The position numbers and the translations under genes were made by a program. A model generated the notes under the pieces. The model was not told the origin of the DNA. It did no database searches and saw only the letters and a list, made by a program, of their open reading frames with translations. A DNA stretch of 64,000 bases from Escherichia phage T4, in sequence record OL964735.1. One strand, given 5' to 3'. Shown in pieces: positions 48,311 through 50,610 of this stretch; positions within the stretch are counted from its first letter, which is position 1; the number at the start of each line of letters is the position of its first letter.

Positions 48311-48339
48311 AAATAAAAAAGGGGACCTCTAGGGTCCCC
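48311..48339 (-). terminator. intrinsic terminator after gene 32
   Basis: minus strand GGGGACC-CTAGA-GGTCCCC hairpin followed by TTTTTTATTTT. Confidence 0.75.
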
Positions 48340-48361: not shown

Positions 48362-49267
48362 TTAAAGGTCATTCAAAAGGTCATCCAGGTCCGTGTCATC
48401 AGCACTAGATGAACTACCAGAGCTTGAGCTCATAAAATCATCTTCAGTTTTTGTATTGAAGTCATCAACATTGAATGCATCCAAATCATCAGCAACTTTA
48501 TCAGCTTTCTTAGCAGCAGTTGCAGCAGCACCGCCCATCACAGCAGTTCCCATAACTTGACCGAATTTAGTATTAAGTTCTTCAAACGATTTGAATTTAT
48601 CTTTAGAAGTCATTTCAGAAAGGTCAACCATTTGTTCGAACAGTTCTTTCTGGAAAGATTCATCGTCAATGTTTGGAATCGCAGATTGATTCAGGAATTT
48701 AGATTCATCGTAGTTACTAAATCCAGAAACTTGTTTAACTTTCAGTACAAAGTTAGCACCTTCCCACGGACAAGTTACATCAACTGGAGTTTCACCCATT
48801 TCAACATCAACCGCAATCATTGCATTGATTTTATCCCAGATTTTCTTACCGAAACGGTATTTAAATACTTTACCTTCGTTTTCTGGAGCAGCTGGGTCTT
48901 TTACTACAAGAATGTTAGCCCAGTAAGAAGTTTTACGTTTAACAAGACTGTACTCTTTATTGTCAGTGTTGTATAGATCATTTTTACTGATGTATTGACA
49001 TACTGGGCAAGAATCGTAATCACCATGGGTAGATGAACATGTTTCAATATACCATTTACCATTTTTCTTGAAACCGTGATTTACAAGAATTGCGAATGGT
49101 GCTTGTTCATCATTTTTAGACGGAAGAAAACGAATTACTGCTTGACCGTTACCCGCATTATCGAGTTTCAGTTTCCACTCGCCTTTATCTTCAGAAGAAA
49201 AACCTTTATTGCCATTCAGTTTAGCCATTTGTGCAGCGAGTTCAGCAGTAGATTTACGTTTAAACAT
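48362..49267 (-). CDS. 32: single-stranded DNA-binding protein (T4 gp32)
   Basis: 301-aa ORF; zinc site H...CPVC; acidic C-terminal tail. Confidence 0.96.
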
Positions 49268-49337
49268 TTTTATTTCCTTTTTAATTTAATTTAATTAACA
49301 GTTGGTGCTATGACACTTTACCTCATAGCTGGCATAA
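49268..49337 (-). promoter_or_regulatory. gene 32 autoregulatory translational operator (AU-rich tract plus upstream pseudoknot-forming hairpin)
   Basis: mRNA-sense leader GCUAUGAGGUAAAGUGUCAUAGC then UUAAUUAAAUUAAAUUAAAAAGGAAAUAAAAAUG. Confidence 0.7.
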
Positions 49338-49955
49338 TTCGCAATACTCTGGGTCTTCGAGAGGTATCCAACCTGAGTTGAAATACTTTACCATCGATTT
49401 AGCAGTTGTATCAGTTATATTTATATTACCTTTAACTCTTCGCCATCCAGGAGTTTTACCGTACAGATTAGAGGATAATAATAACACATAATTCTCGTAA
49501 GCAATATGAGATAATTTCCAAGACTCTATATTAGCTCGTGATGTTTTCCAAGGTCTAAAATCGTCACGGTTCATATAATTAGCCAATCTCATATGCTCTC
49601 TAACTTCCGGGTCTTTGGCTGGATGAGTTTCACCACTCACACCAAATCCACCACCAGCATATACCAGATTAAAATAGTCTGGATTATCTCTGGCATTTAC
49701 TTCAAGTTGGTATTTTCGTTCTGCTTCAATAACATCCAAGTCATCATCAATTTGAATTATTTTAACGCTCGGTTTTTGAAGCATTAGCGCATTCAAAAAT
49801 CTTTTTTGTTTACATGAGCTCCAGTATTCCTTTCCGGAAGAGTCATATATTATTCCGTTCTCAAATGAGCAATTTAATTTACTACCGATATAGTAGTATG
49901 GCGGAGTCTTATTTTTGACACGGTCTTCAAATGTAAACCAATATACTATATTCAT
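49323..49955 (-). CDS. segG: GIY-YIG-like homing endonuclease (SegG-like)
   Basis: 210-aa ORF; N-terminal IVYWFTF...PPYYYIGSK; inserted between genes 32 and 59. Confidence 0.8.
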   Translation of the reverse strand: MNIVYWFTFEDRVKNKTPPYYYIGSKLNCSFENGIIYDSSGKEYWSSCKQKRFLNALMLQKPSVKIIQIDDDLDVIEAERKYQLEVNARDNPDYFNLVYAGGGFGVSGETHPAKDPEVREHMRLANYMNRDDFRPWKTSRANIESWKLSHIAYENYVLLLSSNLYGKTPGWRRVKGNINITDTTAKSMVKYFNSGWIPLEDPEYCELCQL

Positions 49956-49956
49956 A

Positions 49957-50610
49957 TCAATACTTGCAAGATTTCACAGTTTCAATGAAAACATTTTTAG
50001 CTTTCTGTGAATCAATATTTAAAATTTTTCTATAAGCCTTTAACTTTATAGAATAATTATTCCAGACTAAATTATCAGTCTGTTCATCATGTTTATCAAT
50101 TATATTTAAAAACGAATCAAGCAAGATAAACGTCTCAAACGAAATTATGTTCGATTGCAGAAGTTTAAAAATATAACTTGATTGAACTTTTGGATTATAC
50201 TCAAAAATTTCTTTAAAAGCAGAAACTTCAACTTTTTTACTAAAATAATAAATGTTGCGAATATCTTCTTCAAACTTAAATTTAATTTGCTTTAAGCGTC
50301 CGATATATTCACGATAAAACACAAGTGCATCAGCGTCAGAGATGTCACCAATCCAAGCATCTTGGTTAGCAACCAAATTGCTTATAAAGATTAAAGCAAG
50401 TTCCTTTAATTTATATTTTTCTGATAACTTCTGGAAAAAATACTTATCCCTTCGCTTTTGATAAGCGGCATCAGACACCCGCATGCACCAATTATACTTA
50501 ATTACATCATACTTTCCATTCATATGTTGTTTTATCATTAAGTATAATTTATAAACTGATTTACCATCAATGTATCTTTCACCACCAGCAGGCATGCGGA
50601 GTTTAATCAT
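49957..50610 (-). CDS. 59: helicase loader (T4 gp59)
   Basis: 217-aa ORF. Confidence 0.92.
   Translation of the reverse strand: MIKLRMPAGGERYIDGKSVYKLYLMIKQHMNGKYDVIKYNWCMRVSDAAYQKRRDKYFFQKLSEKYKLKELALIFISNLVANQDAWIGDISDADALVFYREYIGRLKQIKFKFEEDIRNIYYFSKKVEVSAFKEIFEYNPKVQSSYIFKLLQSNIISFETFILLDSFLNIIDKHDEQTDNLVWNNYSIKLKAYRKILNIDSQKAKNVFIETVKSCKY

Follow-up and report, generated by a model that had tools for sequence, protein, structure and literature searches.

The window analysed here, a stretch of 64,000 nt from Escherichia phage T4 (record OL964735.1), carries on its minus strand the genes for gp59, SegG and gp32, transcribed in the order gene 59, segG, gene 32 according to the T4 annotation. 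The element under study occupies positions 49268-49337 (-1 to -70 relative to the AUG), directly 5' of the gp32 gene start, and its anatomy is summarised in Table 1. Over 411 nt, the surrounding sequence (49150-49560, minus strand) matches a dozen phage T4 records with 100% identity, AF158101.6 and NC_000866.4 among them, and the open reading frame downstream matches the gp32 family of Pfam (PF08804, E = 4.9e-67), which confirms its previous assignment, in a sequence-only reading, as the leader of gene 32. The SegG open reading frame gave no Pfam-A match at E <= 0.001. A terminator located 3' of gene 32 would close the transcription unit, and the octamer TATAAATA inside segG is a putative late promoter. 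In phages lacking segG, this octamer precedes the pseudoknot described below by a few to about 25 nt, so the pseudoknot would always come to lie at the very 5' terminus of the mature mRNA. A sigma-70-like match in the antisense orientation to the pseudoknot (49310-49338, plus strand; ATGACA, a 17-nt spacer and CATAAT, with an upstream TG, 10/12) was also observed, in a region where seven such sites are present and 6.6 are expected by chance.

Table 1. Features of the gene 32 locus of phage T4, in the order of transcription (window positions; distances from the gene 32 AUG in brackets)
Feature	Position	Strand	Remarks
gp59	49957-50610	-	Pfam T4_Gp59_N and T4_Gp59_C
segG (gene 32.1)	49323-49955	-	Named as a GIY-YIG homing endonuclease in the T4 record; overlaps the pseudoknot at its 3' end
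TATAAATA, match to T4 late-promoter consensus (putative late promoter)	49418-49425	-	Inside segG (-158 to -151)
RNase E processing site	49338 (A)	-	-71; GCGA/AUUAUGCC context; position computed from the AUG, cleavage from PMC3014915
Stem 1, 5' strand	49331-49334	-	UGCC (-67 to -64); pairs with GGUA as U-A, G-U, C-G, C-G
Loop 1	49330	-	Single A, invariant in 9/9 variants, within the invariant CC-A-G junction
Stem 2, 5' strand	49323-49329	-	GCUAUGA; one arm of the 7-bp inverted repeat
Stem 1, 3' strand	49319-49322	-	GGUA; sits in the hairpin loop
Loop 2 (third connecting segment)	49314-49318	-	AAGUG; 3 to 7 nt long among relatives
Stem 2, 3' strand	49307-49313	-	UCAUAGC; ends at -40
AACUGU box	49298-49303	-	Start of the single-stranded operator arm
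Repeat tract	49280-49298	-	UUAA + (UUAAA)x3; cooperative gp32 binding lattice (role from PMC535899 and PMC3014915)
Shine-Dalgarno	49275-49279	-	AAGGA (GG at -10/-9); read from the sequence, within the published gp32 footprint
Gene 32 CDS (gp32, 301 aa)	48362-49267	-	AUG at 49267-49265; open reading frame and T4 annotation
Intrinsic terminator 3' of gene 32	48321-48339	-	GGGGACC-CTAGA-GGTCCCC, then TTTTTTATTT

Read on the minus strand, the sequence is ...GAAUUAUGCCAGCUAUGAGGUAAAGUGUCAUAGCACCAACUGUUAAUUAAAUUAAAUUAAAAAGGAAAUAAAAAUG, the AUG being at 49267-49265, and in full, up to and including the start codon, it is GAAUUAUGCC AGCUAUGAGG UAAAGUGUCA UAGCACCAAC UGUUAAUUAA AUUAAAUUAA AAAGGAAAUA AAAAUG. 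The 5' part of the leader forms an H-type pseudoknot of 28 nt spanning -67 to -40, composed of two stems and a loop 1 of a single nucleotide. The sequence-only reading had described a 7-bp inverted repeat, which is present exactly where it was placed, forms stem 2 and, as a hairpin alone, has a computed stability of -7.3 kcal/mol. The same reading called this hairpin pseudoknot-type without spelling out a second helix; the structure is a true pseudoknot because UGCC (49334-49331) pairs with GGUA (49322-49319) to form stem 1. The UUAAA repeats that it reported, followed by the Shine-Dalgarno sequence and the AUG, were likewise recovered at their positions, and the only correction to the succession of hairpin and repeats concerns the 8 nt between them, ACCAACUG, which had been left out. 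Tandem Repeats Finder describes the tract as period 5, 3.4 copies and 100% match, and the exact (UUAAA)x3 15-mer occurs once in the 64 kb, with 0.3 matches expected when up to one mismatch is allowed. The number of UUAAA units varies among phages that are more than 94% identical to T4 in the region, with two (L003, L096), three or four units (L083, L095), which shifts the distance between pseudoknot and AUG in steps of 5 nt (33/34, 38/39 and 43/44 nt). The whole 3' arm (-39 to -1) is 85% A+U, compared with 64% for the window, and its predicted mean probability of being unpaired is 0.60, compared with 0.46 +/- 0.09 at these positions in pieces drawn at random from the window, making it more open than 93% of the control pieces (top 6.5%). 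These predictions agree modestly with the earlier description of the arm as unstructured, for which experimental support has been published.

The T4 sequence considered alone is not decisive, because both the hairpin and the pseudoknot fall within the range of chance. The window contains 135 perfect 7-bp hairpins, compared with 68 +/- 10 in shuffled sequences, and an equally good pseudoknot is obtained in 2.3% of shuffled leaders and in 4.5% of 110-nt pieces taken at random from the window. Folding of the single leader sequence with RNAfold, which cannot predict pseudoknots, gave an uninformative z-score of -0.02. Such figures are what would be expected if a functionless hairpin happened to lie beside low-complexity A/T-rich sequence. 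We therefore rely on the comparison of the regions upstream of gene 32 in 26 IMG/VR contigs and 15 named phages. Nine different forms of the pseudoknot were recovered, all at the same location, 29-54 nt upstream of the AUG, and they come from Tequatrovirus, Mosigvirus, Winklervirus, Jiaodavirus, Marfavirus and further contigs (Table 2).

Table 2. The nine pseudoknot variants upstream of gene 32 (S1, stem 1; S2, stem 2; loops in lower case)
Variant	S1 5'	Loop	S2 5'	S1 3'	Loop	S2 3'
T4	UGCC	a	GCUAUGA	GGUA	aagug	UCAUAGC
T2-like	UGACC	a	GCUAUGA	GGUCA	uacaucg	UCAUAGC
RB69 / Mosigvirus	AUACC	a	GCUACGA	GGUAU	aagug	UCGUAGC
L016	GUCC	a	GGUGCAA	GGAC	ccacg	UUGCAUC
Marfavirus	GUCC	a	GGUGCAA	GGAC	ucaug	UUGCACC
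Serratia Winklervirus	AUGCC	a	GGUGUGA	GGCAU	uaug	UCACAUC
L019	AUGCC	a	GAUGUGA	GGCAU	uaug	UCACAUC
L021	UACC	a	GAUGCAA	GGUA	aug	UUGCAUC
Klebsiella KPV15	GUCC	a	GUUGCAA	GGAC	ccaug	UUGCAAC

Pairs were counted on an ungapped alignment in which the variable part of the loop was trimmed to its last 3 nt, since MAFFT applied to the full region had placed loop gaps inside the 3' strand of stem 1. On this alignment, all 99 of the 99 cells (nine variants by 11 pairs) are canonical, compared with 79% in shuffles, none of which (0/500) reaches this level, and the covariation score of 0.669 against 0.229 in shuffles is likewise attained by 0/500. Compensatory changes affect six of the 11 pairs, two of the four in stem 1 (S1.1, UA/GC; S1.2, AU/UA/GC/GU) and four of the seven in stem 2. 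The complete pairing is in part a consequence of construction, because the variants were first located by a search requiring perfect pairing, and the nine variants are phylogenetically related; both caveats are mitigated by the invariant CC-A-G and A-GG anchors and by a slid-register control that keeps the relatedness, in which displacing the 3' partners by one to three columns lowers the pairing to 26-52% and nearly abolishes the compensatory changes. The comparative test is decisive, and both stem 1 and stem 2 are, as judged from covariation, real. A chance hairpin, which would leave neither compensatory changes across genera with no broken pair, nor a fixed position relative to the AUG, nor the published footprints discussed below, is refuted by the covariation, and its probability can be regarded as negligible.

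The overlap with segG deserves separate consideration. The stop codon UGA of segG (49325-49323) lies within the 5' strand of stem 2, and the overlap of the 5' part of the pseudoknot with this gene has already been pointed out (PMC535899). It follows that a ribosome terminating translation of segG would have to open the operator structure. Since the last three codons and the stop are inside the hairpin, the open reading frame ending as CAG CUA UGA inside stem 2, it could be argued that the hairpin is conserved owing to a coding or homing constraint on segG, with no RNA structure involved. This explanation is excluded for practical purposes by the phages that lack segG and nevertheless keep a covarying, purely intergenic pseudoknot, namely the T2-like phages (L004, L083), RB69 (L082), the Serratia phages (L018, L085) and KPV15 (L086). 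The hairpin was also considered as a terminator of segG transcription and rejected, since no U-run follows the stem and the terminator scan finds none there.

The architecture deduced in this way coincides with that published for the T4 gp32 operator, in which a 5' pseudoknot of about 28 nt adjoins a less structured part, more than 40 nt long, that carries several UUAAA/UAAA repeats and the ribosome-binding site (PMC535899). The pseudoknot has been placed 67 nt upstream of the AUG (PMC3014915), and our computed limits of -67 to -40 (28 nt) reproduce both its position and its published size. It is described as the nucleation site from which gp32 binds cooperatively along the 3' arm (PMC535899, PMC3014915); this is the same model, for an identical sequence, as the cooperative binding of the single-stranded DNA-binding protein to its own mRNA that had been expected from the letters of the leader. 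The footprinting proposed as a check of that expectation is already in the literature with a positive outcome: gp32 of T4 protects G(+3) to U(-70) (PMC535899), that is, window positions 49265-49337, a near-exact fit to 49268-49337. Autogenous repression depends on the pseudoknot and the UUAAA/UAAA repeats alike, each being essential according to PMC535899, which cites Shamoo 1993, McPheeters 1988 and Fulford & Model 1984. For the T2 version, an NMR structure (2TPK) with two coaxially stacked A-form stems is cited in PMC3014915. The element is thus already known, a textbook system that has been footprinted for decades.

Taken together, these data identify the element, with near certainty, as the autogenous translational operator of bacteriophage T4 gene 32. 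In the present analysis this identification is based on the identity to T4, the anatomy of the leader, the covariation of both helices and the small amount of structure predicted for the 3' arm; for the identical sequence, the literature contributes the binding and footprint of gp32, the need for both elements and the cleavage by RNase E. The present analysis found no evidence contradicting the operator reading.

The mechanism, taken in the main from the literature on the identical sequence, is as follows. Host RNase E processes all gene 32 mRNAs at -71 (PMC3014915), corresponding to A 49338, and in the trimmed transcript the pseudoknot begins 4 nt from the 5' terminus. Once the available single-stranded DNA has been saturated, free gp32 recognises the pseudoknot as a nucleation site and, by means of its N-terminal domain, polymerises cooperatively towards the 3' end over the unstructured, A+U-rich tract AACUGUUAAUUAAAUUAAAUUAAAAAGGAAAUAAAA. 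The resulting coat covers the Shine-Dalgarno sequence and the AUG, thereby blocking the entry of ribosomes, and the outcome is a free gp32 concentration kept at a set value. Through this exclusion of ribosomes, the synthesis of gp32 tracks the amount of single-stranded DNA.

It could alternatively be hypothesised that the 5' pseudoknot is mainly a stabiliser or a processing determinant of the mRNA and the A/U-rich tract a strong leader for S1-type ribosome loading, the repression by gp32 being independent of either. The RNase E cut immediately 5' of the pseudoknot would suit such a role, as would the stability of gene 32 mRNA, the highest of all T4 messages (PMC3014915), and the putative late promoter just upstream of the pseudoknot in phages without segG, which would again bring the structure to the extreme 5' end of the transcript. 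As a replacement for the operator reading, this proposition is nonetheless very improbable, since it is contradicted by published mutagenesis, repression requires both elements and the gp32 footprint covers the whole element (PMC535899). A stabilising role is compatible with the operator as an extra function.

The distribution of the pseudoknot is not uniform among the Tevenvirinae. No canonical T4-type pseudoknot was found upstream of gene 32 in many of them (L006-L011, L013-L015, L017, L020, L022-L024 and L092-L094), which include Karamvirus, Kanagawavirus, Citrobacter phage Moon, Salmonella CGG4-1-like phages and Erwinia COW86c, and in two (L023 and L024) a match was obtained with a relaxed geometry only. 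In the genomes without the pseudoknot where the stop codon of gene 59 could be located, this codon lies 10-42 nt before the gene 32 AUG; for the five groups just named, the distance is given as 10-27 nt. Two further contigs (L025 and L026) exhibit a variant situated about 42-85 nt upstream of the gene 32 start codon, UGACA-GGUGUAG-(9 nt)-UGUCA-aaacuaa-CUACAUC, which has no loop-1 nucleotide and carries the 9-nt insert between the 5' strand of stem 2 and the 3' strand of stem 1.

Of 31 distinct leaders of gene 32 from T4-like phages, 29 contain an AACUGU(W)AA box, compared with a background of 0.06 per 60 nt, and it occurs with or without the pseudoknot; at five loci (L006, L010, L011, L014 and L020) it is situated about 10-60 nt upstream of the gene 32 start codon. 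In the genera devoid of the pseudoknot, which may not be independent clades, the final 12 codons of gene 59 contain three ACUGU motifs in three different codon phases, compared with none or one in the same 12 codons where gene 59 lies at least 79 nt from gene 32. This pattern suggests a selection at the nucleotide level tied to the gene 32 leader. Our literature search found no paper pairing 'gene 32' with 'ACUGU'. It is conceivable, albeit unlikely, that this box followed by UAAA-type repeats, rather than the pseudoknot, is the most constant part of the leader across T4-like phages and that it may act as a specific recognition element not described so far, serving gp32 or another factor and able to replace the pseudoknot as nucleation site.

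Scanning with Rfam 15 at permissive E-values gave no family reaching its gathering threshold, the best overlapping match below threshold being scaDm46E3 (19.8 bits against 61). A match to the DUF2815 RNA (RF03084) at 49265-49323 on the minus strand (18 bits against a gathering threshold of 41.2, E = 3.8) is probably due to chance, as it is carried by the linear A-rich part from UUAAAAAGGAAAUAA to the Shine-Dalgarno sequence and AUG, and three of its seven hairpin pairs are non-canonical. DUF2815 is a family of phage single-stranded DNA-binding proteins (Enc34 SSB; PMC5686142), and the match raises the question of whether that orphan RNA motif is also an autoregulatory leader of such a protein. 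There thus appears to be no Rfam model of the gene 32 pseudoknot, and automated annotation pipelines will keep missing the element for this reason. The copy in the T4 window in itself teaches nothing new, since it is among the founding examples of autogenous translational control and of functional RNA pseudoknots. The contribution of the covariation survey is to extend the pseudoknot to genera of Serratia and Klebsiella phages and to delineate several other genera without it, a closer examination of how gp32 controls its own synthesis in diverse T4-related phages having been urged (PMC3014915, 2010 review).

Among the known systems, the element is the same, base for base, as the T4 gene 32 operator (Krisch & Allet 1982; McPheeters, Stormo & Gold 1988; Shamoo et al. 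1993; review PMC3014915), with no difference, and shares its pseudoknot, UUAAA/UAAA repeats, ribosome-binding site, footprint from +3 to -70 and RNase E site at -71. The pseudoknot of T2/T6 (2TPK; Holland et al. 1999, cited by PMC3014915) has an identical stem 2, the same single-A loop 1 and CC-A-G...A-GG junction, and then a AACUGUUAAUUAAA arm (L004, L083 and L084), whereas its stem 1 comprises at least 5 bp (UGACC/GGUCA) compared with the 4 bp of T4, one of which is a G-U pair, and its loop 2 measures 7 nt (UACAUCG) instead of 5. Since segG is absent from these phages, the element is intergenic and comes directly after the TATAAATA late promoter, itself putative. The operator of RB69 (Borjac-Natour, Petrov & Karam 2004, PMC535899) displays the same architecture at the same position relative to the AUG, with a compensatory change from U-A to C-G in stem 2, AUACC/GGUAU as stem 1, and a 3' arm about 5 nt longer than that of T4 with repeats of the UAAAU/AAUCUAAAU type; cross-repression between the gp32 proteins of T4 and RB69 has been reported, and their footprints differ (PMC535899). 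Outside the T4-like phages, the rpsO operator of E. coli, a comparison already made in PMC3014915, is likewise an autogenous control by a pseudoknot in the leader, but it is unrelated in sequence and has no repeat lattice, and S15 traps the ribosome on the mRNA whereas gp32 excludes it by cooperative coating. The gene V protein of M13/f1, acting on gene II mRNA (cited in PMC535899), is also a cooperative single-stranded DNA-binding protein that serves as a translational repressor, but it belongs to an unrelated protein family and its target is the mRNA of another gene, which is bound without a pseudoknot, in contrast to the operator described here, through which gp32 controls its own synthesis.
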